Part shown: in pieces, positions 17,453 through 31,194 of the stretch
Layout: each line of letters begins with the position of its first letter
Numbering within the stretch: the stretch's first letter is position 1
Assembly: GCF_011045215.1 (NCBI RefSeq)
Contig: NZ_CP049201.1
Strand: one strand, 5' to 3'
Source of the DNA: Escherichia coli
GTDB taxonomy: Bacteria > Pseudomonadota > Gammaproteobacteria > Enterobacterales > Enterobacteriaceae
DNA: 64,000 bases
The notes under the pieces: model-generated
Databases searched by the model: none
What the model saw: only the letters and a program-made list of their open reading frames with translations
What the model was told of the DNA's origin: nothing
Position numbers and translations under genes: made by a program

Positions 17453-18679
17453 ATGGGAATTAACGAAATCATCATGTACATCATGATGTTCTTTATGCTG
17501 ATAGCTGCCGTAGACAGGATCCTGTCGCAGTTCGGCGGTTCTGCTCGTTTCCTCGGTAAGTTCGGTAAAAGTATCGAAGGATCAGGCGGTCAGTTCGAAG
17601 AAGGCTTTATGGCAATGGGCGCACTGGGCCTGGCGATGGTCGGTATGACCGCGCTGGCACCGGTACTGGCTCACGTACTCGGGCCGGTAATTATCCCGGT
17701 TTACGAAATGCTCGGCGCAAACCCGTCAATGTTCGCCGGAACGCTGCTGGCGTGCGATATGGGCGGCTTCTTCCTCGCCAAAGAGCTGGCGGGCGGCGAC
17801 GTAGCAGCGTGGCTATACTCTGGGTTAATTCTCGGGTCGATGATGGGGCCAACGATTGTGTTTTCCATTCCGGTGGCGCTCGGCATTATCGAACCTTCTG
17901 ACCGTCGTTATCTGGCGCTCGGCGTGCTGGCGGGCATTGTGACCATTCCGATTGGTTGTATCGCTGGTGGTCTGGTAGCTATGTACTCCGGTGTGCAGAT
18001 CAACGGCCAGCCGGTGGAATTCACTTTCGCCCTGATCCTGATGAACATGATCCCGGTGATCATTGTTGCGATTCTGGTGGCGCTGGGGCTGAAATTCATC
18101 CCGGAAAAAATGATCAACGGCTTCCAGATCTTCGCCAAATTCCTCGTTGCATTGATCACCCTCGGTCTTGCCGCTGCGGTAGTGAAATTCCTGCTTGGCT
18201 GGGAACTGATCCCCGGTCTGGATCCTATCTTTATGGCCCCTGGCGATAAACCCGGTGAGGTGATGCGCGCCATTGAAGTTATCGGTTCTATCTCCTGCGT
18301 TCTGTTAGGGGCGTATCCGATGGTGCTGCTGCTGACCCGCTGGTTTGAAAAACCGCTGATGAGCGTCGGTAAAGTGCTGAATATGAACAACATCGCGGCA
18401 GCCGGCATGGTGGCAACGCTTGCCAACAACATCCCGATGTTCGGCATGATGAAGCAGATGGATACCCGCGGCAAAGTCATCAACTGCGCCTTCGCCGTTT
18501 CTGCTGCTTTCGCCCTGGGCGACCACTTAGGGTTCGCCGCTGCCAACATGAATGCCATGATCTTCCCGATGATTGTCGGCAAGTTGATCGGCGGCGTAAC
18601 GGCGATTGGCGTGGCGATGATGCTGGTGCCAAAAGACGACGCGACCGCAGCTAAAACCGAAGCGGAGGCACAATCGTGA
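17453..18679 (+). CDS. eutH: Ethanolamine permease EutH
   Basis: 408-aa highly hydrophobic multi-pass membrane ORF in eut operon. Confidence 0.9.
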   Translation: MGINEIIMYIMMFFMLIAAVDRILSQFGGSARFLGKFGKSIEGSGGQFEEGFMAMGALGLAMVGMTALAPVLAHVLGPVIIPVYEMLGANPSMFAGTLLACDMGGFFLAKELAGGDVAAWLYSGLILGSMMGPTIVFSIPVALGIIEPSDRRYLALGVLAGIVTIPIGCIAGGLVAMYSGVQINGQPVEFTFALILMNMIPVIIVAILVALGLKFIPEKMINGFQIFAKFLVALITLGLAAAVVKFLLGWELIPGLDPIFMAPGDKPGEVMRAIEVIGSISCVLLGAYPMVLLLTRWFEKPLMSVGKVLNMNNIAAAGMVATLANNIPMFGMMKQMDTRGKVINCAFAVSAAFALGDHLGFAAANMNAMIFPMIVGKLIGGVTAIGVAMMLVPKDDATAAKTEAEAQS

Positions 18680-20079
18680 ACACTCGCCAGCTACTGAGCG
18701 TCGGTATCGATATCGGCACTACCACCACCCAGGTGATTTTCTCCCACCTGGAACTGGTTAACCGTGCGGCGGTGTCGCAGGTGCCGCGCTACGAATTCAT
18801 CAAACGCGAAATTAGCTGGCAAAGCCCGGTGTTCTTTACCCCTGTCGATAAACAGGGTGATTTAAAAGAAGCGGAACTGAAATCGCTGATTTTAGAGCAA
18901 TATCAGGCTGCGGGCATTGCACCGGAAAGCGTTGATTCTGGTGCCATCATCATCACCGGTGAAAGCGCGAAAACCCGCAATGCTCGCCCGGCGGTGATGG
19001 CGCTCTCTCAGTCGCTGGGCGATTTTGTCGTTGCCAGCGCCGGGCCGCACCTCGAATCCGTGATCGCCGGTCACGGAGCCGGGGCACAAACCCTTTCTGA
19101 ACAACGGCTGTGTCGGGTACTGAATATCGACATCGGCGGTGGCACCGCGAACTACGCCCTGTTCGATGCCGGAAAAATCAGCGGCACTGCCTGCCTCAAC
19201 GTCGGTGGTCGCCTGCTGGAAACCGACAGCCAGGGGCGCGTGGTTTACGCTCATAAACCGGGGCAGATGATTGTGGATGAGTGCTTCGGCGCAGGCACCG
19301 ACGCCCGTTCGCTGACCGGCGCGCAGCTGGTGCAGGTTACCCGGCGGATGGCAGAGCTGATTGTCGAAGTGATTGACGGAACGCTCTCGCCGCTCGCGCA
19401 GGCATTGATGCAAACCGGTTTGCTGCCCGCAGGTGTTACGCCCGAAATCATTACGCTTTCTGGCGGCGTGGGCGAATGTTATCGCCACCAGCCCGCCGAC
19501 CCGTTCTGTTTTGCCGATATTGGCCCGCTTCTGGCAACGGCGCTGCATGACCATCCGCGCCTGCGTGAGATGAACGTGCAGTTTCCGGCGCAAACCGTGC
19601 GTGCCACGGTGATTGGCGCGGGGGCACATACCCTTTCGCTCTCTGGCAGCACAATCTGGCTTGAGGGCGTACAACTGCCGCTGCGCAATTTGCCGGTGGC
19701 GATCCCGATTGATGAAACGGATCTGGTGAGTGCCTGGCAACAGGCGCTGATTCAACTGGATCTTGATCCCAAAACTGACGCGTACGTGCTGGCGCTTCCC
19801 GCCTCGCTGCCTGTGCGTTACGCCGCGGTACTGACGGTCATCAACGCGTTGGTCGATTTCGTCGCGCGTTTTCCGAATCCGCATCCCCTGCTGGTGGTGG
19901 CCGGGCAGGACTTTGGTAAAGCTCTGGGCATGTTGTTGCGCCCACAGCTACAACAACTCCCGTTGGCAGTCATTGACGAAGTGATTGTCCGCGCGGGGGA
20001 CTATATCGACATTGGTACGCCTCTTTTTGGCGGATCGGTTGTGCCGGTGACGGTGAAATCACTCGCATTTCCTTCCTGA
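18676..20079 (+). CDS. eutA: Ethanolamine ammonia-lyase reactivase EutA
   Basis: 467-aa ORF, 4-nt overlap with eutH; eut operon synteny; followed by the inserted element. Confidence 0.9.
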   Translation: MNTRQLLSVGIDIGTTTTQVIFSHLELVNRAAVSQVPRYEFIKREISWQSPVFFTPVDKQGDLKEAELKSLILEQYQAAGIAPESVDSGAIIITGESAKTRNARPAVMALSQSLGDFVVASAGPHLESVIAGHGAGAQTLSEQRLCRVLNIDIGGGTANYALFDAGKISGTACLNVGGRLLETDSQGRVVYAHKPGQMIVDECFGAGTDARSLTGAQLVQVTRRMAELIVEVIDGTLSPLAQALMQTGLLPAGVTPEIITLSGGVGECYRHQPADPFCFADIGPLLATALHDHPRLREMNVQFPAQTVRATVIGAGAHTLSLSGSTIWLEGVQLPLRNLPVAIPIDETDLVSAWQQALIQLDLDPKTDAYVLALPASLPVRYAAVLTVINALVDFVARFPNPHPLLVVAGQDFGKALGMLLRPQLQQLPLAVIDEVIVRAGDYIDIGTPLFGGSVVPVTVKSLAFPS

Positions 20080-20172
20080 ATACTGTAGTTATCAGGCGTG
20101 GCGCTGGGTTGCGGGGTGTTAGTGGGATTATATCCGGCTGTGTATCCGGTCGGGGTGATTGGTCTGTATAGC

Positions 20173-20194
20173 AAAACCCGGCGCGGGGCCGGGT
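20173..20194 (-). terminator. Intrinsic terminator (minus-strand orientation)
   Basis: On minus strand reads ACCCGGCCCCGCGCCGGGTTTT: GC stem CCCGGC/GCCGGG followed by U-run, 7 nt after stop of the 20201-20761 gene; identical copy at 21822-21843. Confidence 0.6.
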
Positions 20195-20200
20195 GAACTA

Positions 20201-20761
20201 TCATTCAGGGAACAAGTTGATTTGAAGCAAACTGCCAATGTATTTACCAGTGCTTTTAATTTTTCGCTTTGATGGCTTACACGAATTCAGGTTGACACCA
20301 GCCTGGCTAGATATTGGCTTGTATTGCCGCTCCGCCAGTACGATCAGGTCTGCCGCGTCTTTTAGCTTTCCATCGTTAGCCAGTTCCAATGCTCGATCCG
20401 CCATTTGCCCGCATTGTTGAATCAGCTTAAGTTGCGATACCTCCAGTCGCAATTGCTGGATTCGTTCTACCACTTTCGCCCTAATGCGCTTAGTTTCACG
20501 CATTCCCATTCTTAATGCCTGGTTGCCAGTAAGTGAGTAAACCTCTTTTTCTTTCCTGAAGTTTGCGGCTTTACCGTCAGCTTGGACGCGCATTTTATGC
20601 GCTTCCAAGAATTCGCCCTCCAATTCATCCCTGATCTTCGCGTTGAATCTGTCGTTCTTGAGTTCATTTAACCCTTCCGCCTTGCGGATCTGGTTGATTA
20701 ACTCCAACAATTCATCACTGCGGATACGCCACTCGCTATCAACCTGTACCAAGTCAAACAT
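20201..20761 (-). CDS. Hypothetical phage protein (186 aa from ATG with GGGAG RBS; coiled-coil, possibly regulatory)
   Basis: ORF with good RBS upstream of internal ATG at 20761 (track start 20854 is TTG); no confidently recognised domain. Confidence 0.55.
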   Translation of the reverse strand: MFDLVQVDSEWRIRSDELLELINQIRKAEGLNELKNDRFNAKIRDELEGEFLEAHKMRVQADGKAANFRKEKEVYSLTGNQALRMGMRETKRIRAKVVERIQQLRLEVSQLKLIQQCGQMADRALELANDGKLKDAADLIVLAERQYKPISSQAGVNLNSCKPSKRKIKSTGKYIGSLLQINLFPE

Positions 20762-20924
20762 GTTGTTGCTCCCGTTTTGCTGCCATAGGGCAACGGCTCG
20801 CCAGCCTTTATCACCTCCTTTAGTTGTTGCGATTCTTAACTGAATGGTTATCAAAACGCTGCGTTAATATCATTGATATGTATCAAATTTGTTTTGTGAC
20901 GCGACAATGCCTTGTGAATATCAA

Positions 20925-20949
20925 TAAAAAACCCAGCGCTATGGCTGGG
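20925..20949 (-). terminator. Intrinsic terminator (minus-strand orientation)
   Basis: Minus strand CCCAGCcatagcGCTGGG followed by UUUUUU, 45 nt downstream of stop of 20995-21723 gene. Confidence 0.5.
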
Positions 20950-20994
20950 CTTCTCTTGATGGCTGGTTTTGTAGCTAATCGTTGGCTTTAAGGG

Positions 20995-21723
20995 TTAAGC
21001 AACAATATTAATCCCGCTCCTTGTCGCTGCCTCTTTGGCAATTTTCCCCTCGTCCTCCAGTTTAGCTAACGCCTTGTACATCCAGTGGCGGCCCGGTGCG
21101 CCATGCAGCTTGCCATCTTTGCCGATCTTACCGAACGCATGTAACGCCAAATCGTCGATAGTCCCCTTGTATCCGCCTTGCTCCTTAAGCCATTGCTCAA
21201 GCTGTTCTACTTTGAATTTTGCCGGACGTCCGCCAGCCGCTTTTTGTTGTTTAGCTGGTTCTTCTGCAATATCGCTTTTGTTGTTTAAGTCCGTCATGAC
21301 TGGTTCTCCTACAATAGCGTCGCCCTTGGTCTCGATTTGTTGATTAACTGGTTTGTCTACAATATCGATTTTGTTGTTTAGCTGGTTTTTCAACATATCA
21401 ATCTCAGCCTTTAGCGCCTCGTTTTCTCTGGCTAGTTCTTCGCAACGCTTGATAAATTTTTGTTCCATGCCGTCCGGGCTATCAACGTGCGCCGTACCCA
21501 TTACGATCTTCCCGTTGCTATCGAAGATGACAGCTTGCCAACCGACTGCGGCGAGCATTTTAAACACATCATCAGCGGTCTTGTTTGTTGTATCGCGACG
21601 CCCTTTAAACTTGTGGCTAGCAGCGCCTTTGCCTTTGAAGCCCATTGCCTCAGCGACATCTTGCCGCGTCATCTTGCGAGCGCGCTTGTTCATGCCTAAC
21701 TCAACCCAATCCATGTATTCCAT
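20995..21723 (-). CDS. Hypothetical phage protein with internal tandem peptide repeats (242 aa)
   Basis: ORF with GAGGT RBS; DNA and protein contain imperfect tandem repeats (LNNKIDIVDKPVNQQ / LNNKSDIAEEPAKQQ); basic N-terminal region possibly DNA-binding. Confidence 0.6.
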   Translation of the reverse strand: MEYMDWVELGMNKRARKMTRQDVAEAMGFKGKGAASHKFKGRRDTTNKTADDVFKMLAAVGWQAVIFDSNGKIVMGTAHVDSPDGMEQKFIKRCEELARENEALKAEIDMLKNQLNNKIDIVDKPVNQQIETKGDAIVGEPVMTDLNNKSDIAEEPAKQQKAAGGRPAKFKVEQLEQWLKEQGGYKGTIDDLALHAFGKIGKDGKLHGAPGRHWMYKALAKLEDEGKIAKEAATRSGINIVA

Positions 21724-21821
21724 ACATTACCTCATTTTGTCGCTAAACGTTTTGCTTTCTAATTTATCAACAAAAAAGCGGGTGATGGTAGCCGCTTTGA
21801 TGGGGAAGTTGACAGGGATCA

Positions 21822-21843
21822 AAAACCCGGCGCGGGGCCGGGT
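21822..21843 (-). terminator. Intrinsic terminator (minus-strand orientation), identical copy of 20173-20194
   Basis: Same 22-bp sequence aaaacccggcgcggggccgggt; 18 nt downstream of stop of AlpA-like gene 21861-22091. Confidence 0.6.
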
Positions 21844-21860
21844 ATTAGCAAGTTAGATGA

Positions 21861-22091
21861 TTACTGGGTATCGCTGTCAGAAAGTAGTCCAATTGATTTA
21901 AAGAATTTCATCACATCCTGATAGCGATACATGACGCCCCGCCCGGTTCCCAGCACATCAACAGGGTCGGGGAATGGAGTTCCGTTCTGTTCCCATTTCT
22001 TACGCCACGAATAAAACGTTCCCCTGCTAATTCCGCCCAGCATCCGGCAGATGGCAGGGCGGCTAAGAAGGATTACTTCATTTTTATCCAT
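21861..22091 (-). CDS. AlpA-family phage transcriptional regulator / excisionase-like HTH protein (76 aa)
   Basis: Motif LSRPAICRMLGGISRGTFYSWRKK...FPDPV typical of AlpA/Xis-type HTH; GGGAGA RBS. Confidence 0.6.
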   Translation of the reverse strand: MDKNEVILLSRPAICRMLGGISRGTFYSWRKKWEQNGTPFPDPVDVLGTGRGVMYRYQDVMKFFKSIGLLSDSDTQ

Positions 22092-22110
22092 TGTTTAATC
22101 TCCCGTGTGT

Positions 22111-22299
22111 TTATTTTGCGTAGATTAAGGCAAATGCTCTTTTGGCTTTGCTTAGTTCGTATTCGCGTTTTTCTATGATTGCCATCAGTTCTTGTGCGGT
22201 GGCTGGCACGCCCGCTCTTATCAGCGCAATCTTAGTATCCATAGCGCACACTCTTTCACGCACCATATCGAAGATAATTTCCGCTCTATCGTGTTTCAT
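22111..22299 (-). CDS. Small hypothetical protein (62 aa)
   Basis: ORF with strong GAGGTGA RBS 5 nt upstream of ATG; 19 bp upstream of AlpA-like gene, likely co-transcribed. Confidence 0.5.
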   Translation of the reverse strand: MKHDRAEIIFDMVRERVCAMDTKIALIRAGVPATAQELMAIIEKREYELSKAKRAFALIYAK

Positions 22300-22648
22300 G
22301 ATTTCACCTCATATTTGTTGCTAAACCTTGTAAACCCTTGTTTGACTACAAAATACACCTGGTTAAGCGACTGATAAAATGATTTAGGTCAATTTATTGG
22401 TTGATGATTTATGTCTGATTGGATTTGTCTACAAATGGCAGGTTAGTCAACAAATGATGAAACCAGGGAATGGCGGTTATAATGTCAGCGGGGATTGTGA
22501 GAAAGGCCCGGGTAGGTTGCTAACTGCCTGGGCCTTTATTTTTGGCGCGTGTACGTGAAATCTGGAAAATTTGCAGGGTAGTTGTTGAGGGATTTTTCGC
22601 GTAGGAGCGTGAAGGGTCCGCCAGTCATCGCCCTGACGTAGCGGTGAA

Positions 22649-23050
22649 TTACTTGCGAGGCTCACCCATCGGCCAGGCACCTTCATTGCGACGATAACCA
22701 ATCCGGTACTCTTCCGGCAGCGGCAAGCCCTGCTCACGATATGGACGCAGATCGAAGCCAAAAACAGGATCGTCGTCGTAGGCGAGGAATAGCCCGGCAG
22801 GCTCTGCCACGCGTTCGATAATCAGTTCCCCATCTTCAACGAAGAAGATCAGATTATCGCGAAAGTCCGTTACCTCACTGACGTGATAACATTCGGCATG
22901 TGCGTCCAGCCAGGCTTCTCGGTATTCCTGAATCTCGGCTTCTGACCATGTTGAAACAGGACGCTCCCAAATTCCCAGGCTGGATTTGCCCTGGCGGGAG
23001 AATAATTTTGCCTCTTTGCTCTGCTCTGGTTTTCTGTTTAAAAAGCTCAT
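22649..23050 (-). CDS. Hypothetical protein (133 aa)
   Basis: ORF with AAGGAGAA RBS; no recognised domain. Confidence 0.55.
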   Translation of the reverse strand: MSFLNRKPEQSKEAKLFSRQGKSSLGIWERPVSTWSEAEIQEYREAWLDAHAECYHVSEVTDFRDNLIFFVEDGELIIERVAEPAGLFLAYDDDPVFGFDLRPYREQGLPLPEEYRIGYRRNEGAWPMGEPRK

Positions 23051-23186
23051 TATTCTTCTCCTTTGAACGGATTGTTCTTGCTCTCTAATAACTTAGCGCG
23101 ACCCAGTAACGTCCGGGCAAGCGCCTCCGCCTTCCTTAGCCTAAGCCCTGCGTCTTCTGCGTCCAGATCTACATTCCTGATAGCCT

Positions 23187-23450
23187 CTACAGCCTGCTCC
23201 GCTGCGTCCGGGCGTGAATCCACTTAAATATGCCGATATGCTCACGAAAGTCTGGATGCTCATATTGCCAGCGGCAGATTGTTCTGAAGCTCGGCATGTC
23301 AGGCATGTTGCCAATCTCTCTGAGACTATGGCCTTCAGCTACCAGCAAGCAGATTTCTTCAGCGATAGCGACCCCATACTTAGCGCTTTTTCTGCTTAAA
23401 CTTGTGACATCAACAGGTAAGTTATTGATTTCTTTATCATCACCCTTCAT
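23187..23450 (-). CDS. Small HTH protein resembling the DNA-binding domain of phage terminase small subunits (87 aa)
   Basis: Motif AEGHSLREIGNMPDMPSFRTICRWQYEHPDFRE resembles TerS-type HTH; GGGGGTAA RBS; family assignment is from memory and tentative. Confidence 0.4.
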   Translation of the reverse strand: MKGDDKEINNLPVDVTSLSRKSAKYGVAIAEEICLLVAEGHSLREIGNMPDMPSFRTICRWQYEHPDFREHIGIFKWIHARTQRSRL

Positions 23451-23525
23451 AATTACCCCCGAATTGATAGCGAATTGATAGCGAATTACCCCGAATTACC
23501 CCCGAATTACCCCCGAATCACCATC
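23451..23525. repeat. Tandem array of about 6.5 copies of an 11-bp unit (AATTACCCC(C)G x4 and AATTGATAGCG x2)
   Basis: Directly visible: aattaccccc g aattgatagc g aattgatagc g aattacccc g aattaccccc g aattaccccc g aatcaccatc, exactly filling the gap between the 93-aa gene stop and the 87-aa gene start. Confidence 0.85.
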
Positions 23526-23527
23526 AT

Positions 23528-23809
23528 TTAACCCTCGCCTACGTCTGCGTCGATGCTTGCTAACTGGCTGTGTAGATCGCGTTCAATCATTTTTACCTTT
23601 TTCACAAAATCCCTTTCCTCGGCGGTGGCGGGCGCGCCCTGGGCTATGTTTTTCGTGAGGTCGTGGAAAGTGCCGAAAACATAAAGGGAGAACAGCCTTA
23701 ATTGTTGCCGCTTCATTGGCAAATCACTGTTGCTATGTTTGATCTCAGCGACGCCTTTCGAAATAACACGGGCCATCCCATGACAAATTCTTAACGTAAG
23801 CGCAGACAT
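23528..23809 (-). CDS. Hypothetical protein (93 aa)
   Basis: ORF with GGGGAG RBS; no recognised domain. Confidence 0.5.
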   Translation of the reverse strand: MSALTLRICHGMARVISKGVAEIKHSNSDLPMKRQQLRLFSLYVFGTFHDLTKNIAQGAPATAEERDFVKKVKMIERDLHSQLASIDADVGEG

Positions 23810-23930
23810 GATATTTACTCCCCGACTGGTATAATGAACGTGGTTTTAAACGTTGCTATTTGCTAACCATTTAATCTGTTAACTCAATTTCGCATTGTTG
23901 GCCCGGCACGAACACCGGGCTTTTCTTTAC

Positions 23931-24272
23931 CTATTCGAAATAGCTTCCAATATCCGGTGTCCGGGTATCAGTTTTCCGGGTCGGCTCGAAGTACGATTCC
24001 AGATCCGGCGTTTTCGGCCCACGCTGGGCGTTGGCGGCGGGTTGCTTTTCTTCTGGCTGTTCCGGCTGTTTACTACCAAATCGGCGCTCCAGTTGGTCCA
24101 TCAGCACTACCATCATTTCCTGGACCAGCTTTTCATCGGCTTTATCAAGGTTCTCCAATACCATCGCCATCCCTTTGCGGAATTTAAGCTCAGCGTCGTC
24201 CGGTTCCGGTGCTGATTCGTTTGCTTTAACTGCCAGGGCGATCCGGCGTTTTGCTTCATCCAAAAAATTCAT
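23931..24272 (-). CDS. Hypothetical acidic protein ending in repeated SYFE motif (113 aa)
   Basis: ORF with GGGGGAA RBS overlapping stop of upstream gene; C-terminus ...DLESYFEPTRKTDTRTPDIGSYFE. Confidence 0.5.
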   Translation of the reverse strand: MNFLDEAKRRIALAVKANESAPEPDDAELKFRKGMAMVLENLDKADEKLVQEMMVVLMDQLERRFGSKQPEQPEEKQPAANAQRGPKTPDLESYFEPTRKTDTRTPDIGSYFE

Positions 24273-24277
24273 TTTGT

Positions 24278-24721
24278 TTATTCCCCCATGTGGAAATAGT
24301 CATCTAAGCGGCGATTAAACTCGTCGCTGCCATCGAAATATTCACGGATACTTTTATTGACCAGATCATCACCGTCGAAATACTGGCGCGTGAAATCGTC
24401 CAATTCCCCATCGAAGTATTGACGTGTGAAATCGTCTAATTCCCCTTCAAAATATTGACGCGCATCAGGCGCTCTGTTTGGCGCTGTAGCAATCTCAGAT
24501 TGATTGCCCTGTAACTTATCGACGTTTGCTAAATACACGCCCAGTGAGCTGTTTGTTCCCATTACCGCAAGCATTTTCCGGCGATCTGCCATGTTCGGCG
24601 CGAGCGATGATAATTGAGCTTTAATTTTGTCCACTTCCTGATTAACAATACGGTCAATCAGTGGTTGATTCGTGCGAATAATTTCCTGTGCCAACTGGCG
24701 AATATATTCTTTGCGTGTCAT
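24278..24721 (-). CDS. Hypothetical protein with C-terminal tandem RQYF(D/E)GELDDFT repeats (147 aa)
   Basis: ORF with GGAGAT RBS; encoded by about 3.5 tandem 36-bp DNA repeats near 24330-24465. Confidence 0.55.
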   Translation of the reverse strand: MTRKEYIRQLAQEIIRTNQPLIDRIVNQEVDKIKAQLSSLAPNMADRRKMLAVMGTNSSLGVYLANVDKLQGNQSEIATAPNRAPDARQYFEGELDDFTRQYFDGELDDFTRQYFDGDDLVNKSIREYFDGSDEFNRRLDDYFHMGE

Positions 24722-24739
24722 TTCTTATCTCCGTTCATC

Positions 24740-25123
24740 TCATTTCTGTAAAAAACCCATACCGTGGCCCAGGCGATTTGAAATTTTCCCGGCAAGCATC
24801 CGGCGAATATGTTTTTCGTTGATGATGTCGTGAGTGACCGGATCTTCACCTTTCATACATTCCGGCATCTGGTCAAACAATACGGAAGCGCCTTCATCAA
24901 TAATCTCAGTTAAGACTGCTGGCAGCATATTAATGATGCGTTCTGCTTCGTCGTTCATTGCTTTATCGAACGCTTTTTTATCCATTGCTTCGGCGGATGG
25001 TTTGTAATTGTCGCCAGTCAGGTTAAGGTAAGTGTTGTTTGGGTGATACATGGCATTCACTCCTTTTACTTTGATTGTTGCGATTTCTTTGTTTTTGTTA
25101 ATTGTGGTGCCTTTGACTTTCAT
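24740..25123 (-). CDS. Hypothetical protein (127 aa)
   Basis: ATG overlaps stop of HNH gene (ATGA), suggesting translational coupling; no recognised domain. Confidence 0.5.
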   Translation of the reverse strand: MKVKGTTINKNKEIATIKVKGVNAMYHPNNTYLNLTGDNYKPSAEAMDKKAFDKAMNDEAERIINMLPAVLTEIIDEGASVLFDQMPECMKGEDPVTHDIINEKHIRRMLAGKISNRLGHGMGFLQK

Positions 25124-25539
25124 GCTGCTTCTTCCTTCAATAATTGTGGCAATTTGCCTGTTAGTTCGATTTCTTCATTAATAGATGCAAGTAACTGTCT
25201 CAGTTTGCGATGTAATAGCTGGTGACGCTCTCTCGGCATTTTTACCAGGTTGCTTAAGCGGTTATTCTGCGGATCGTAGTCCCGGTGATGGATATCATAT
25301 TTTCGCTCATCGTAAACACCGTAGCACCATAACCAGGCAGCCTTTTCTATTGTCATGCAGGTACGTTTTCCGTTGCTTAAACAAATGGTTATACTCAGGT
25401 GACCGCGATGTTTTTCGTTTAAGCTGCCTTTAATTACCTGGCCTGTGCTGCGGTTGTGAAATAAACCAGTTTCAGGGTCGTAGTGATATTTCTGTCGTAA
25501 TATATCAACTGATAACCGTAGTCTTGTAAGATTGTCCAT
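25120..25539 (-). CDS. HNH homing-type endonuclease (139 aa)
   Basis: Motif YDIHHRDYDPQNNRLSNLVKMPRERHQ (HH...N...N...H) typical of phage HNH nucleases; GAGGTAG RBS. Confidence 0.7.
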   Translation of the reverse strand: MDNLTRLRLSVDILRQKYHYDPETGLFHNRSTGQVIKGSLNEKHRGHLSITICLSNGKRTCMTIEKAAWLWCYGVYDERKYDIHHRDYDPQNNRLSNLVKMPRERHQLLHRKLRQLLASINEEIELTGKLPQLLKEEAA

Positions 25540-25571
25540 GATGTTCTACCTCAATGTGATTGCTGTGTTAA

Positions 25572-25757
25572 TTATCTTTCTTCTTGTGGCCTATTCAGCC
25601 AGGCCTCGATCTCGCTACGCCAGAATAATAAACGACAATTTCGCGGCGTAAATGGTTGGGGTATTGTCTTATCTTTTAATAGCCATCTTCGAATCGTTCT
25701 TGTTGATACCCCCGCTATTAATGCGAAAGCTCGCAGATCTATAACTTCATCTCTCAT
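25572..25757 (-). CDS. AlpA-like HTH regulator (61 aa from ATG with GAGGT RBS)
   Basis: Sequence LIAGVSTRTIRRWLLKDKTIPQPF...WRSEIEAWL matches AlpA/Xis-type HTH pattern; track ORF start 25862 is a TTG extension. Confidence 0.55.
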   Translation of the reverse strand: MRDEVIDLRAFALIAGVSTRTIRRWLLKDKTIPQPFTPRNCRLLFWRSEIEAWLNRPQEER

Positions 25758-26537
25758 GTTCTTACCTCGATTAAAAAGGACCGCCCCCAGGGAAAGAAGA
25801 AAGAGGAAAGAGGAAAGAGGAAAAACTTCCTGGAGGCGGGTAATTCGGATTCCTTGAATCAATATCCCATGTGATACTTAATATTATAAAGGGCGGCGGG
25901 CTATGTCGCTATTTTTGCCATAGTGTGACACCATTAATTTATTAACAAAAAGTGCTATTTATTAAATCTTTTTTCGGCAGGTGCAAGAAAAATAATTGCG
26001 ACACGGTAGGGTAGCGGGCGATAATAATCATGTAAGGAGTAGCCACCTTACGCCTCCAAATGTGATCGATAAAAATAATAGTCTCAATTCTTTCTCCCGC
26101 TTCTCGGCGGTTTTTTTGCCTGCAATCACACATCAAAAAAACACATCGAATTGATATGCCTTTAAAACGCAATATAACGCATTTTGACGGCCTTAATTTT
26201 TGCCTATCCACTCGGAAGCGTAAGCCTGTTTTGATTCGTCTGGCGTGGAATGGTGCGGCGGTAATATCAGATCTCAGCGTTCTGTGTGGTGGGATGGAAT
26301 AGCCTGGCAGGATCTGCGTGTGATTTCATTCATCCAACCTTGGATGAATGGTCCGATCTGGTCAGTAGTCCGGCACAAATAAAAAGCGCCTGCGGGCGTA
26401 GCAGACGCTTTGTGTACAGGCTTATCAGTACGGGATGTGCACGAATGATTATACCACCCTCAGAAAAACGTTTGCTTTTGCACTTAAACGGATAAGTGGT
26501 ATTTCTTGGTCTTCATTGGTTTTAGCTCACCATAGGC

Positions 26538-26765
26538 TCATTTAGGTGCGCCCCTGTCGATAATTCGGTACATGTTCTCGGTATATCTCCCGTTAATCAC
26601 CGTTCTGGTAACAACAATCACACCGTTTTCCTCCAGAAAGGCAATGGCCCGCTTCACTCCCTGGCGGCTTACACCGGATAGCTGCGCCAGCCTGTCAATG
26701 GAGATGTTGTATTTGTCCGGCTGGCTTGTCAGGATCTGGAATACCGCTCGTGCTGTTTTCGTCAT
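26538..26765 (-). CDS. Small winged-helix DNA-binding protein (75 aa), candidate regulator
   Basis: Sequence ISIDRLAQLSGVSRQGVKRAIAFLEENGVIV has HTH character; divergent from the plus-strand cassette; RBS weak. Confidence 0.45.
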   Translation of the reverse strand: MTKTARAVFQILTSQPDKYNISIDRLAQLSGVSRQGVKRAIAFLEENGVIVVTRTVINGRYTENMYRIIDRGAPK

Positions 26766-27037
26766 GGCAAAAACTCATTGAAATTGGATACCCTTAGAAC
26801 GCTCTCAAACGCTCCGTAATGCGATGAGAATTTTACCTAAGCAAGTGTAGCTCTTTATTAGTTTTATGATGCCGTAGGCCGATAGAAGGTGCGCTCTCTG
26901 AAGTTTCATTGTCTATCAGTGGTGGGTAATGCTGCCTTTACTATTGGCGTCAAGAAAATCACTGGTGTAGATTGGGCGAATAGTTTACTATTCAAACAAG
27001 GCACAATGGCCTTAGCGGATTGATGTCAGGAGATACC

Positions 27038-27385
27038 ATGTCAAAAATAGTTACTTTGTTTGCGACTAAGCGAGAAGGGAAATCCCTTTCTGTGCGCACT
27101 CGTAAGCCAAAAGCTATGACTGGCTTGCGTAAAACAAATCGTCTGACGCATCTTGACGCGTTAGCGTATCGACTAGGATACCAGTTGGTGCGCGGTAAAA
27201 GTGTCATGTTTCGCTACACTGCTACTCTCGATCACGAAGAAAACAAAGTGATGAATGCGGCCTCGCCTATGGCTGTACCACGAGTAAAAAAAATGACGTT
27301 CACACAAGCGTGTGATTTATCAAAAGATTTATTCGATTCACGAGAAGAACGCTTAAAGAGTGTAAGCTTTGATGGTCCAGAATGA
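27038..27385 (+). CDS. Basic 115-aa protein, candidate partner (antitoxin or regulator) of downstream YafO-like gene
   Basis: ATG at 27038 preceded by AGGAGA RBS; stop overlaps start of next gene by 14 nt; basic N-terminus and acidic C-terminus; no recognised family. Confidence 0.5.
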   Translation: MSKIVTLFATKREGKSLSVRTRKPKAMTGLRKTNRLTHLDALAYRLGYQLVRGKSVMFRYTATLDHEENKVMNAASPMAVPRVKKMTFTQACDLSKDLFDSREERLKSVSFDGPE

Positions 27386-27887
27386 ATTTATTGGTAAGGT
27401 CTACAGTGATAACAAGTTTAAAACAAACGATGAATTAAAGAGCTTTAAGGATTCGTTTATTTATCATTGGAGATATGGACATCATCCTGATTTTGGAAAG
27501 GATACTCTTTTCCATAAACCCCCGTGTGTATATCCTATCCATTTACGTAAAGTCCATGTAAATATTGGTCTTTATACCAATCAGTACGGCTATAGCGGGA
27601 CAGAACAATGCTGGGATGACTGGTCTACTGGTCGTTATGGTCCCGGTGGTTTCGAAAAAGTTACCCCTACATCTGATGCTTATCTTATATACGCTGTATG
27701 TAAAAATAGAAATGCTGGCGTGTTAGACTTCTGGTTTCCTCCCGCACACAAAAACGCTGAGTTCGAATCCTCTGTACAGTTTGTGGCTGAGATGGCTGAT
27801 AAGTTTTATGAGTCTATCAAGGCGGACCCGATGCCGCGCGATCAGAATCCTTGGCATACGGGGTATATAGTTAAAAAACCAGCCTGA
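27372..27887 (+). CDS. YafO-family toxin-like protein (171 aa)
   Basis: Motifs F-I-Y-H-W-R-Y-G...PDFGKDTLF, YPIHLRKVHVN and SDAYLIYAV line up with recalled YafO motifs (FISYKRDG...PDIFGRDALY, ERVAHIHLAN, DEAHLVYCQG); similarity judged from memory, not computed. Confidence 0.45.
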   Translation: MVQNEFIGKVYSDNKFKTNDELKSFKDSFIYHWRYGHHPDFGKDTLFHKPPCVYPIHLRKVHVNIGLYTNQYGYSGTEQCWDDWSTGRYGPGGFEKVTPTSDAYLIYAVCKNRNAGVLDFWFPPAHKNAEFESSVQFVAEMADKFYESIKADPMPRDQNPWHTGYIVKKPA

Positions 27888-28438
27888 TCCACGCAATACT
27901 GATTGTTTTTGGCCTTGTATGGTGTGGTCTGATTTGAGGCAAAATTATTTAATCCCTTAAAAAACTAACTTCAAAAGACTAAAACCAGGGGGATGGTCCC
28001 TCTCGCTCCGCTCCAGGTACCATCCCTGTCGGGATGGGTTTATTGTAGAGTTAAAATTAATTACTCACATCGTCACACCTTGCGAAAGTTTTGCTCAATT
28101 ATCATTCAAACATAGCACAAAAAATATTCGATTTAGTTAGTGTGCACTGACTTTTTTATCAATTTACTTTCATTCGAAAGTCATGGGTTAAATATTAATC
28201 ATCTGGCTGTGGCACGCATGGATTCACCGAGGGTATTTTGGACCATTTGGTCAAAATTCATAAGTACATGATTTCATGGTGATTTATTTTTCTGTATCTT
28301 GCTTTCATTCGAAAGTGGAAACGAAGAATTGGCAATTTATTGATTCAGATCATTGACATTGCATATTTGTGGCGGTTGTCACGGTTGTTTTTTGAGCGCT
28401 TCAACCGTCGATATTGAGTATAAACCCGGCCTTATAGT

Positions 28439-29644
28439 TCACGGTTCAAGTGGATTACCGTCACCAGCCAATATTGAATCAATAGCGTCGGCGTAATCCT
28501 GCATCATTGCTCGCCGTTGCTTCAGGTAGGCCGCCTGGTTATAAACGCCGCGCACACCTTTCGGGACGTGGGCCAATTGGATTTCGATCCAGTCTGGTGA
28601 GTATCTGCCAGACTCATTAAGCGCCGTTGAAAAGGTGGTCCGCCAGCCATGACCAGTGGCAATGGATTTATAGCCGATCCTCTCAAGCGCCTTCAGTATC
28701 GCGCTGGCTGAAAGTGGCTTATCCATGAATCGACCAGGGAAGACGAAAGCACTGTATCCGCTCCTTGTAAACTGGTCCTGTAATAGCTCCACCGCCTGCC
28801 GTGATAGCGGGACCACATGCGGGCGGCGGGCCTTCATGACTTCAGCGGGCAATGTGATTGTTGCGTCCTCCAGGTTTATCCATTCCCAACGGCACAAACG
28901 CAGTTCTGCGGTCCTTAATGCCGTTAATATAAGCAAACGTATTGCCGTCTGAATCTGGACGCTCCCGGCCCTCTCAAGGGCTTTGTAGAAGGCCGGAATT
29001 TCACTAATCGGTATCCACGCGTTGTGACCAGGTCGGCGGGCCTTCAGTGCCGTATCAAGATCTGCAACCGGATTCCTCGTTACCAGTTCGGTGATAACGG
29101 CAAACTTGAAGATCTCACCGATGCGCTGGCGTAGCTTGCGGGCCTGCTCCGGTGCGGTACGTTCTTTCTTCTGGAGTAATGCCAGCACGTCACGGGCGGT
29201 TATATCGACAATCGACCGCTTGCCAAGTACCGGATAGACGTCTTTTTCTAGGGCCGATCTGACCTGTTTTGCATAGGATTCCGACCACCCTCCAACCCTA
29301 GTAGCAAACCAGTCTTCCGCCACCTTCTTAAATCCTGCCGCCATGTTGAGCGCATCAATGGCTTTTTCCTTGCGGGCTTGTTCCACTGGGTTAATTCCAT
29401 TGGCAATAAGGGATCTGCTCTCCGTGGCGCGCCTGCGTGCTTCTTTGAGTGTGATTAGCGGGTAAACACCAATAGCCTGCAAAAACTCTCGTTTATTCAA
29501 CCAATACCTGAATCGCCAGTATTTCGAACCGTTGGGATGCACCAGCAAAAACAGCCCCGGCGTCAGTGAATCGGTGAGTTTATAGGGCTTGTCCTGCGGC
29601 TGTGCGGCGTCTATGGCCTTTGCTGTGAGTGGTGTCTTGCTCAA
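28439..29644 (-). CDS. intZ: Tyrosine-type site-specific integrase (prophage integrase)
   Basis: 401-aa ORF with phage integrase features (N-terminal arm-binding domain, C-terminal catalytic region with ...HGWRTT...); sits at the element end beside eutB as intZ does in E. coli K-12; start appears to be TTG. Confidence 0.8.
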   Translation of the reverse strand: MSKTPLTAKAIDAAQPQDKPYKLTDSLTPGLFLLVHPNGSKYWRFRYWLNKREFLQAIGVYPLITLKEARRRATESRSLIANGINPVEQARKEKAIDALNMAAGFKKVAEDWFATRVGGWSESYAKQVRSALEKDVYPVLGKRSIVDITARDVLALLQKKERTAPEQARKLRQRIGEIFKFAVITELVTRNPVADLDTALKARRPGHNAWIPISEIPAFYKALERAGSVQIQTAIRLLILTALRTAELRLCRWEWINLEDATITLPAEVMKARRPHVVPLSRQAVELLQDQFTRSGYSAFVFPGRFMDKPLSASAILKALERIGYKSIATGHGWRTTFSTALNESGRYSPDWIEIQLAHVPKGVRGVYNQAAYLKQRRAMMQDYADAIDSILAGDGNPLEP

Positions 29645-29832
29645 AACCGGATACCTTGATTTAACGACTGGATAACCCCGATCATGTATCCGGCGCGTTC
29701 GGTTGCGTTCGGCAGGATAAGTAACGGGCGTATTAAGTGGAACACCTTACAGGACAAGGGCTAACGATGAAATAGAATTGTTTGCAGGCTGTGAGAAATG
29801 TTAATCGTCACTTCTTCCTGAGGGAACGACTT

Positions 29833-31194
29833 ATGAAACTAAAGACCACATTGTTCGGCAATGTATATCAGTTTAAGGATGTAAAAGAGGTGCTGGCTAA
29901 AGCCAACGAACTGCGTTCGGGGGATGTGCTGGCGGGCGTCGCAGCGGCAAGCTCACAGGAGCGCGTGGCGGCAAAGCAGGTGTTGTCGGAAATGACCGTA
30001 GCGGACATCCGCAATAATCCGGTGATTGCCTATGAAGATGACTGCGTGACGCGGCTGATTCAGGACGATGTTAACGAAACGGCCTACAACCAGATTAAAA
30101 ACTGGAGCATCAGCGAACTGCGTGAGTATGTGCTGAGCGATGAAACCAGCGTGGACGACATTGCCTTTACCCGCAAAGGGCTGACCTCGGAAGTGGTCGC
30201 GGCGGTAGCGAAGATTTGCTCCAACGCGGACCTGATCTACGGCGCGAAGAAAATGCCGGTAATCAAAAAGGCCAATACCACCATCGGTATTCCGGGCACC
30301 TTCAGCGCCCGTTTGCAGCCAAATGACACTCGTGACGACGTGCAAAGTATCGCCGCGCAAATCTACGAAGGGCTTTCCTTCGGGGTGGGCGATGCGGTGA
30401 TCGGCGTTAACCCGGTGACTGACGACGTGGAAAACTTAAGCCGCGTGCTGGATACCATTTATGGCGTGATCGACAAATTCAACATCCCAACTCAGGGCTG
30501 CGTACTGGCGCACGTCACCACTCAGATCGAAGCGATTCGTCGTGGCGCACCAGGCGGGCTGATTTTCCAGAGTATCTGTGGCAGTGAAAAAGGGCTGAAA
30601 GAGTTTGGCGTGGAACTTGCGATGCTCGACGAAGCGCGCGCAGTGGGTGCAGAGTTCAACCGTATCGCCGGGGAAAACTGCCTCTACTTCGAAACCGGAC
30701 AAGGTTCAGCGCTATCCGCTGGCGCTAACTTCGGCGCAGACCAGGTGACGATGGAAGCACGTAACTATGGGCTGGCGCGTCATTACGATCCGTTTATCGT
30801 CAACACCGTGGTCGGCTTTATTGGGCCGGAGTATCTCTACAACGACCGCCAGATTATCCGTGCGGGCTTAGAAGATCACTTTATGGGCAAGCTGAGCGGC
30901 ATCTCTATGGGCTGTGACTGCTGTTACACCAACCACGCTGACGCTGACCAGAACCTCAACGAAAACCTGATGATCCTGCTCGCCACCGCAGGCTGCAACT
31001 ACATCATGGGGATGCCGTTGGGCGATGACATCATGCTCAACTACCAGACCACGGCCTTCCACGACACTGCCACTGTGCGTCAGTTACTCAACCTGCGCCC
31101 GTCACCGGAGTTTGAACGCTGGCTGGAAAGCATGGGCATTATGGCAAACGGTCGCTTGACCAAACGGGCGGGCGATCCGTCACTGTTCTTCTGA
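29833..31194 (+). CDS. eutB: Ethanolamine ammonia-lyase large subunit
   Basis: 453-aa product from ATG at 29833 (MKLKTTLFGNVYQFKDVKEV...); EutB family. Confidence 0.9.
   Translation: MKLKTTLFGNVYQFKDVKEVLAKANELRSGDVLAGVAAASSQERVAAKQVLSEMTVADIRNNPVIAYEDDCVTRLIQDDVNETAYNQIKNWSISELREYVLSDETSVDDIAFTRKGLTSEVVAAVAKICSNADLIYGAKKMPVIKKANTTIGIPGTFSARLQPNDTRDDVQSIAAQIYEGLSFGVGDAVIGVNPVTDDVENLSRVLDTIYGVIDKFNIPTQGCVLAHVTTQIEAIRRGAPGGLIFQSICGSEKGLKEFGVELAMLDEARAVGAEFNRIAGENCLYFETGQGSALSAGANFGADQVTMEARNYGLARHYDPFIVNTVVGFIGPEYLYNDRQIIRAGLEDHFMGKLSGISMGCDCCYTNHADADQNLNENLMILLATAGCNYIMGMPLGDDIMLNYQTTAFHDTATVRQLLNLRPSPEFERWLESMGIMANGRLTKRAGDPSLFF

Follow-up and report, generated by a model that had tools for sequence, protein, structure and literature searches.

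Within a small regulator-like gene of Escherichia coli a stretch of coding sequence is repeated, and the question this raises is whether the repeat varies in number between strains and, if it does, whether what varies is essentially a peptide or an element of the DNA. The gene lies in a window of 64,000 nucleotides, by which we mean the whole stretch of DNA that was analysed. The first-pass annotation of this DNA had described an intragenic tandem duplication and had placed the gene, the repeat and its peptides correctly, in an ORF at 20995-21723 on the minus strand that encodes 242 amino acids.

The gene and the island that carries it

The 242-aa gene starts at an ATG with a GAGG Shine-Dalgarno sequence 7 nt on its 5' side, and it is entered in NCBI records either as "XRE family transcriptional regulator" or as "hypothetical protein". 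Terminator hairpins on both sides (21825-21843 and 20926-20955) indicate that it is a separate transcription unit, arranged as follows.

20995..21723, minus strand: gene for the 242-aa regulator-like protein, recognised from its ORF, homologues, Shine-Dalgarno sequence and pN/pS
21724..21843, minus strand: upstream region, with the terminator hairpin of the preceding gene followed by a leader and promoter segment
20926..20955, minus strand: intrinsic terminator of the 242-aa gene, a 12-pair stem followed by a T run

The gene forms the eutA-proximal end of an island of about 9.6 kb (20080-29700) that separates eutA (18676-20079) from the ORF at 29782-31194, which we take to be eutB by its position in the eut operon alone. 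The island has a G+C content of 46% against 52% for the window, and its integrase gene (28439-29644) adjoins the presumed eutB. It also carries excisionase-like, HNH, small-terminase-like (23187-23450) and AlpA-like (21861-22091) genes, together with a 75-aa fragment resembling the N-terminus of a replication initiator (26538-26765). Capsid and tail genes were not seen, and the island has the appearance of a satellite or a degraded prophage. Two related loci at the same eutA/eutB site, L001 and L003, contain tape-measure and HK97 gp10-type genes, and in related strains the 242-aa gene terminates either small islands or larger tape-measure prophages, always beside eutA.

A search of the literature for elements at the eutA/eutB site returned only the description of CPZ-55, a cryptic prophage of E. 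coli K-12 that is inserted directly 3' of the eutA stop codon and is present in 8% of 638 strains (PMC6379469). The window island shares with CPZ-55 the chromosomal site between eutA and eutB and the position of the integrase beside eutB, and the 8-bp target-site sequence of K-12, TCAGGAAG, is found as its complement CTTCCTGA at the eutA stop (PMC6379469). The cargo of the two elements, in contrast, is unlike. They also differ in frequency: against the 8% given for CPZ-55, the 242-aa gene is detected by blastn in only 39 of 5426 complete E. coli genomes.

The protein is predicted to consist of a divergent XRE-type helix-turn-helix (HTH), a four-heptad leucine zipper, a linker and a winged-helix-like C-terminal domain of about 80 residues. 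The three parts that surround the linker are:

21472..21723, minus strand: N-terminal domain, aa 1-84, a divergent XRE/Cro-type HTH (type A), assigned by alignment to type B
21379..21471, minus strand: coiled coil or leucine zipper, aa 85-115, with heptads read from the sequence
20998..21240, minus strand: C-terminal domain, aa 162-242

Homologues carry one of two N-terminal types, A in the window protein and B in other alleles. Type B scores 25.6 bits for the Pfam family HTH_3 against a cut-off of 23, whereas type A has no HTH_3 match and does not reach the gathering score of that family (PF01381). Residues 17-61 of type A are nevertheless 29% identical to the HTH_3 region of type B (E = 2e-6), by which the possibility that the two types are unrelated was rejected in favour of distant homology; the sequence comparison makes it likely that type A is homologous to HTH_3 proteins, although formal family membership is not reached. 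The heptads of the zipper place F90, L97, L104 and L111 at d positions and C94, N101, I108 and L115 at a positions, and they fall inside an AlphaFold helix that spans residues 83-121 with pLDDT up to 74. Matches of the coiled coil to Pfam bZIP, HALZ and TACC were all sub-threshold; those to the bZIP and leucine-zipper families (PF00170, PF02183) had E values of 0.019-0.025 and scores of about 15 bits, where the cut-offs are about 28, with only the heptad pattern shared.

The C-terminal domain has no relatives outside its own family in an HMMER search of 1.84 billion representatives, which returned its own cluster, two fragments and one spurious match to a repetitive 2108-aa protein. In the AlphaFold model it resembles a winged helix; a Foldseek comparison with the PDB was not significant, and single-sequence folding of the domain alone gave an unusable model (pLDDT 49). 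For the protein as a whole, sequence searches of Pfam, PHROGs, NCBIfam, PADLOC and the PDB yielded sub-threshold coiled-coil matches only, and neither a translated search of 50,697 phage genomes nor the defence-system and NCBIfam libraries gave a match.

Between the long helix and the folded C-terminal domain the AlphaFold model has an unstructured segment, residues 120-169, with pLDDT of 26-35, which agrees with the linker foreseen in the first-pass annotation, where structure prediction had been proposed as a check. The low pLDDT of this segment is nonetheless weak evidence of disorder, as the model has a low overall confidence (mean pLDDT 48), a consequence of a shallow and near-identical alignment. 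That annotation saw a linker between a basic N-terminal region and a C-terminal domain; the C-terminal side is borne out, and on the other side stands a leucine zipper that follows an HTH, not merely a basic region.

Repeat units and copy-number variation

Read codon by codon, residues 116-161 resolve into three units arranged head to tail, of 48, 45 and 45 nt, each length a multiple of three.

21331..21378, minus strand: repeat unit 1, NNKIDIVDKPVNQQIE, aa 116-131, 48 nt
21286..21330, minus strand: repeat unit 2, TKGDAIVGEPVMTDL, aa 132-146, 45 nt, the most diverged
21241..21285, minus strand: repeat unit 3, NNKSDIAEEPAKQQK, aa 147-161, 45 nt

At the DNA level a repeat search recovers units 1 and 3 as a pair of 45-nt copies (21243-21287 and 21336-21380) with 87% identity and a spacing of 93 nt, and it is this pair that gives rise to the peptide repeat at aa 116-129 and 147-160. 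Unit 2 is detected as 20-nt copies, 85% identical, at spacings of 45 and 48 nt, and a 13-nt core recurs at spacings of 34, 59 and 34 nt. The tandem duplication first described holds for units 1 and 3, while the diverged middle unit had been missed. The units share the polar consensus L-[NS]-N-K-x-D-I-[VA]-[DE]-[KE]-P-[VA]-x-Q-Q, of 15-16 residues. The peptide level alone gives a modest signal: without gaps, the best match covers 8 of 14 residues, a score also reached in 4 of 200 shuffled proteins. The 46-residue linker contains no aromatic residue, 15 charged residues, nine N or Q and three P, a composition that fits disorder. The repeat itself is real and far beyond chance.

Homologues of the protein numbered 213, and where a source is named it is E. 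coli or Shigella only. Two database searches supplied about 160 proteins, of which about 156 were full-length and were used to define linker classes. Three units, with a linker of 45-46 aa, are found in 134 of these homologues; two units (30-31 aa) occur in eight, which have two different structures, and a single unit (14-15 aa) in 14. Alleles with more than three units were absent from the full-length set, and the range of copy number is therefore narrow. The repeated form is the majority among distinct sequences and not an isolated exception, the outcome that the proposed alignment of homologues was meant to distinguish. Among complete E. coli genomes the gene is present in 39 of 5426 (blastn down to about 65-70% identity), with three units in 22, two in 11 and one in six. 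The most widespread single sequence is a one-unit form of 211 aa, found on 636 contigs. The suggestion that repeat number changes linker length is in this way supported in both collections, with alleles of one, two and three units.

Alignment of the DNA shows how these classes differ from each other. The L001 allele has lost 93 nt between copies of TAAACAACAAAA, and L012 has lost 45 nt between the second and third GATATTG..AACCAG segments. The other type of two-unit allele, represented by L004, begins with a very different first unit (TDTGDKQPITD), and within it L011 lacks one 45-nt unit relative to L004. Copy number thus differs by whole units, through indels of 93 or 45 nt, and the proposal of an in-frame duplication holds in that the indels are exact multiples of the unit and fall at repeated DNA segments. 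In one-unit alleles the roughly 195 flanking residues are identical to those of longer alleles: P0114 has the flanks of the window protein P0001, and P0132, also with one unit, those of the two-unit protein P0124. At least four backgrounds, with N-terminal domains of both types among them, contain such short alleles with identical flanks, from which it follows that unit-sized in-frame indels have recurred. The events are also recent relative to point substitution. Their presence in six complete genomes, and on 636 contigs for one sequence, shows that the short alleles are not assembly artefacts. The copy-number polymorphism is real, and is an ordinary kind of variation.

Variation within the linker is not confined to its length. 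Pairwise amino-acid diversity per site, calculated over 104 distinct 242-aa sequences, is 0.093 in the linker; the corresponding values are 0.010 for the N-terminal domain, 0.019 for the zipper and 0.040 for the C-terminal domain. In the eight three-unit alleles for which DNA was available, pN/pS is 0.55 for the linker vs 0.12 for the C-terminal domain, the latter value marking a constrained coding gene. At synonymous sites the linker has diverged about half as much as the C-terminal domain (0.105 vs 0.218). The pattern of substitution indicates relaxed constraint on the linker rather than positive selection.

Tether, docking motif or DNA element

The explanation that we favour, and consider probable, is that the array is an in-frame VNTR (variable-number tandem repeat) encoding a flexible, probably disordered tether within a regulator carried by a mobile element. 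The four-heptad zipper after the XRE-type HTH would probably act as a dimerisation element, and one to three polar units of 15-16 aa would tether the zipper-held HTH dimer to the winged-helix-like C-terminal domains. Copy number may change by slipped-strand mispairing or by unequal recombination between short internal direct repeats, for which there are two candidates: the 11-12-nt core TAA[A/G/T]CAACAAA(A), which extends to 19-22 nt in some alleles, and a segment of about 20 nt, CGATATTGyAGAnnAACCAG. Either process could leave in-frame indels of 45 or 93 nt, and as constraint on the linker is relaxed, the resulting length variants would be tolerated. The most likely effect of a change in length would be on the distance that the C-terminal domains can span from the N-terminal DNA-binding dimer held by the zipper.

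It is conceivable, but unlikely, that each 15-aa unit is instead a functional short linear motif to which a partner or a protease docks, with copy number setting the valency. The N-K-x-D-I, E/K-P and Q-Q positions are well kept across alleles, and a linker pN/pS below 1 leaves room for some remaining constraint, both of which speak for such a motif. However, the middle unit is strongly diverged, the first unit of the L004-type two-unit alleles is very different, one-unit alleles are common, as the 636 contigs for one sequence attest, and no known motif or family is matched.

One observation sits less comfortably with a tether. The exact repeat TTTTGTTGTTTAGCTGGTT was first given as 17 bp at a spacing of about 126 bp and was regarded as the source of the peptide units; it measures 19 bp, with copies 127 bp apart (21242-21260 and 21369-21387). 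As 127 is 3n+1, the copies lie in different codon phases and do not encode equivalent positions of the peptide units, one reading NQLNNK and the other EPAKQQ, so that the 45-nt pair described above takes over the role assigned to them. An 18-nt motif, AACCAGYTAAWCAACAAA, is present in three copies in the 64-kb window, all of them within the 242-aa gene, where 0.00 would be expected from 100 shuffles.

21369..21387, minus strand: copy 1 of the 19-bp exact repeat, sense AACCAGCTAAACAACAAAA, codon phase 0, N-Q-L-N-N-K, at the end of the coiled coil
21242..21260, minus strand: copy 2 of the 19-bp exact repeat, codon phase 1, (E)-P-A-K-Q-Q-(K), at the end of the linker
21336..21353, minus strand: third copy of the 18-nt motif, AACCAGTTAATCAACAAA, read as (K)-P-V-N-Q-Q

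Beneath the units of 45-48 nt there is a DNA periodicity of 34 nt, composed of the core TAA[A/G/T]CAACAAA and a segment of about 22 nt, which places the same motif in two reading frames. The out-of-frame recurrence of the 18-nt motif is not predicted by a repeat driven by its peptide, and it counts against the tether. Three causes are conceivable: conservation of the N-N-K and Q-Q-K residues, gene conversion, and selection that acts on the DNA itself.

The last of these leads to the proposal that the repeats are mainly a DNA element lying within coding sequence and that the peptide repeat is a by-product, which we regard as very unlikely. The element might comprise iteron- or operator-like direct-repeat sites, perhaps bound by the conserved winged-helix-like C-terminal domain, a form to which we attach little credence. 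By analogy, the array could be a cis element at which the protein's own C-terminal domain binds direct-repeat sites, or one at which the island recombines or replicates, and this too is very unlikely. A motif of 18-19 nt in two frames is the signature expected of selection at the DNA level. All 14 alleles examined as DNA, one-unit alleles included, retain the motif in two frames at 34-nt spacing, and L001 carries an exact 22-nt pair of copies 34 nt apart. Variation is lower in the motif cores (3 of 39 positions) than in the remainder of the linker (27 of 108; Fisher p = 0.02), which, together with the low synonymous divergence of the linker, could point to gene conversion or to a constraint on the DNA. 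The linker DNA and the C-terminal domain have also been retained together while the N-terminal domain was swapped.

Against this, the 18-nt motif is absent from the window outside the 242-aa gene and from the 12-kb flanks of related loci, and the same searches gave no dispersed copies that might act as operators. No inverted repeat was found within the array by the repeat search, and an inverted match between the end of the linker and the promoter region was taken as a chance match of A/T-rich sequence, since only TTTTGTTGAT is conserved across alleles. The motif does not co-vary with the type of N-terminal DNA-binding domain, and its conservation is explained equally well by the N-N-K and Q-Q-K residues or by gene conversion.

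A precedent for such an element is found in phage lambda, where ori-lambda lies inside gene O and lambdoid phages vary in iteron number between four and six (PMC6022878, PMC7466680). Gene O and the window gene each contain, in their central part, direct DNA repeats of about 19 bp, and each encodes a DNA-binding protein of two domains, predicted to be such in the case of the window; in both the repeat number varies among relatives and in-frame deletions in the array are viable, and in both a variable N-terminal part is joined to a conserved C-terminal part (PMC6022878, PMC7466680). The lambda iterons, however, are inverted repeats (PMC7466680), and the window motif is not. Nor does the window protein contain Phage_rep_O, DnaD or any other initiator domain (Pfam, PHROG), and its repeats lack co-variation with the N-terminal domain. 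Located at the att-proximal end of the element and isolated by a terminator on each side, the gene is not in a replication module, and the analogy serves only the DNA-element proposal; the reading of the array as an origin within a gene is largely rejected on this evidence.

That A-rich, low-complexity coding sequence produced the repeat by chance, or that the length differences are assembly artefacts, is already refuted: the linker is indeed 46% A with 38% G+C, and the score of the peptide match is equalled by 2% of shuffled proteins, but the threefold 18-nt motif, the 19-nt exact repeat and the unit-sized indels in complete genomes and in hundreds of contigs from independent sources deprive this idea of practically all credibility.

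Known systems and neighbouring features

The in-frame VNTR, our preferred explanation, leaves current understanding unchanged, and only the out-of-frame DNA motif hints at less ordinary biology; were the DNA-element proposal true, a change in copy number would act simultaneously on a protein tether and on a site for regulation or replication. Intragenic VNTRs that encode disordered inter-domain linkers form a general class in bacterial and phage proteins. The array resembles them in its in-frame head-to-tail units, in its unit-sized copy-number polymorphism between strains, in a polar, proline-containing composition free of aromatic residues, in relaxed constraint and in its predicted location between two folded parts. 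It differs in being very short (one to three units) with long units (45-48 nt), for which reason it is not a fast-switching contingency locus, and in its 34-nt out-of-frame DNA periodicity, which typical peptide-driven repeats lack. Phase-variable contingency loci have many copies of 1-9-nt units and switch frames or promoters, whereas every indel observed here is in frame. The protein family is uncharacterised and narrow in distribution, and an intragenic linker VNTR is as a kind already known.

Regulators of the XRE/Cro-C1 type (HTH_3, PF01381) combine an N-terminal HTH, a flexible linker and a C-terminal oligomerisation or effector domain. The window protein shares with them a predicted N-terminal HTH and carriage on an integrase-bearing element, and its very different allelic HTHs (29% identity) on a near-identical C-terminal part recall the mosaics of phage immunity regions. 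It departs from them in a type A domain that lies below the Pfam cut-off, in a zipper and a winged-helix-like domain that has no sequence relatives and is neither peptidase S24 nor a known oligomerisation domain, and in a promoter region that is common to both HTH types.

The alleles compared for the two HTH types are those of the window (21472-21723), L003 (2659-2960) and L004 (2587-2890). Identity between types A and B exceeds 90% both in the 140 nt upstream, with promoter and leader, and in everything that follows about residue 100, and the swap begins at the ribosome-binding site. The exchange resembles that of immunity-type modules, though the promoter is shared.

Across alleles at the eutA/eutB site, tethers of 15, 30 and 46 aa are found on otherwise identical regulator proteins. 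This natural allelic series could serve as an experiment on tether length in a putative two-domain DNA-binding protein, and linker length is a possible small marker for strain typing.

Within unit 2, at 21295-21312 on the minus strand, the sequence GGAGAACCAGTCATG contains GGAG, which resembles a Shine-Dalgarno sequence and lies 8 nt upstream of the in-frame codon for Met143. A putative start there would yield a protein of about 100 aa, made up of half the linker and the C-terminal domain. The signal is absent from one-unit alleles and reads GTAG in L008, and a few proteins have Ile in place of the Met.

Around the gene, a 22-nt terminator hairpin, AAAACCCGGCGCGGGGCCGGGT, occurs as exact copies at 20173-20194 and 21822-21843 and as a weaker copy at 20928-20949. 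The exact pair brackets a two-gene module formed by the 242-aa gene and a downstream ORF (20201-20854, minus strand), listed as 217 aa but probably starting at an internal ATG that would give about 186 aa. This ORF has weak PHROG matches to anti-repressor (Ant) families, with E values of 1e-5 to 2e-4. The downstream ORF is missing from L002, where the 242-aa gene runs directly into the AAAACCCGGCGCGGGGCCGGGT hairpin, and its position in L001 is occupied by a different ORF of 187 aa, so that what follows the regulator is an exchangeable cassette gene. In the metagenomic relative L013 (1468-2648) two ORFs, of 217 and 176 aa, follow the regulator as a further cassette variant. On the 5' side of the Ant-like ORF, at 20873-20886, lies a perfect 6-2-6 palindrome, TTGATATGTATCAA, which is plausible as a candidate operator for an HTH dimer.
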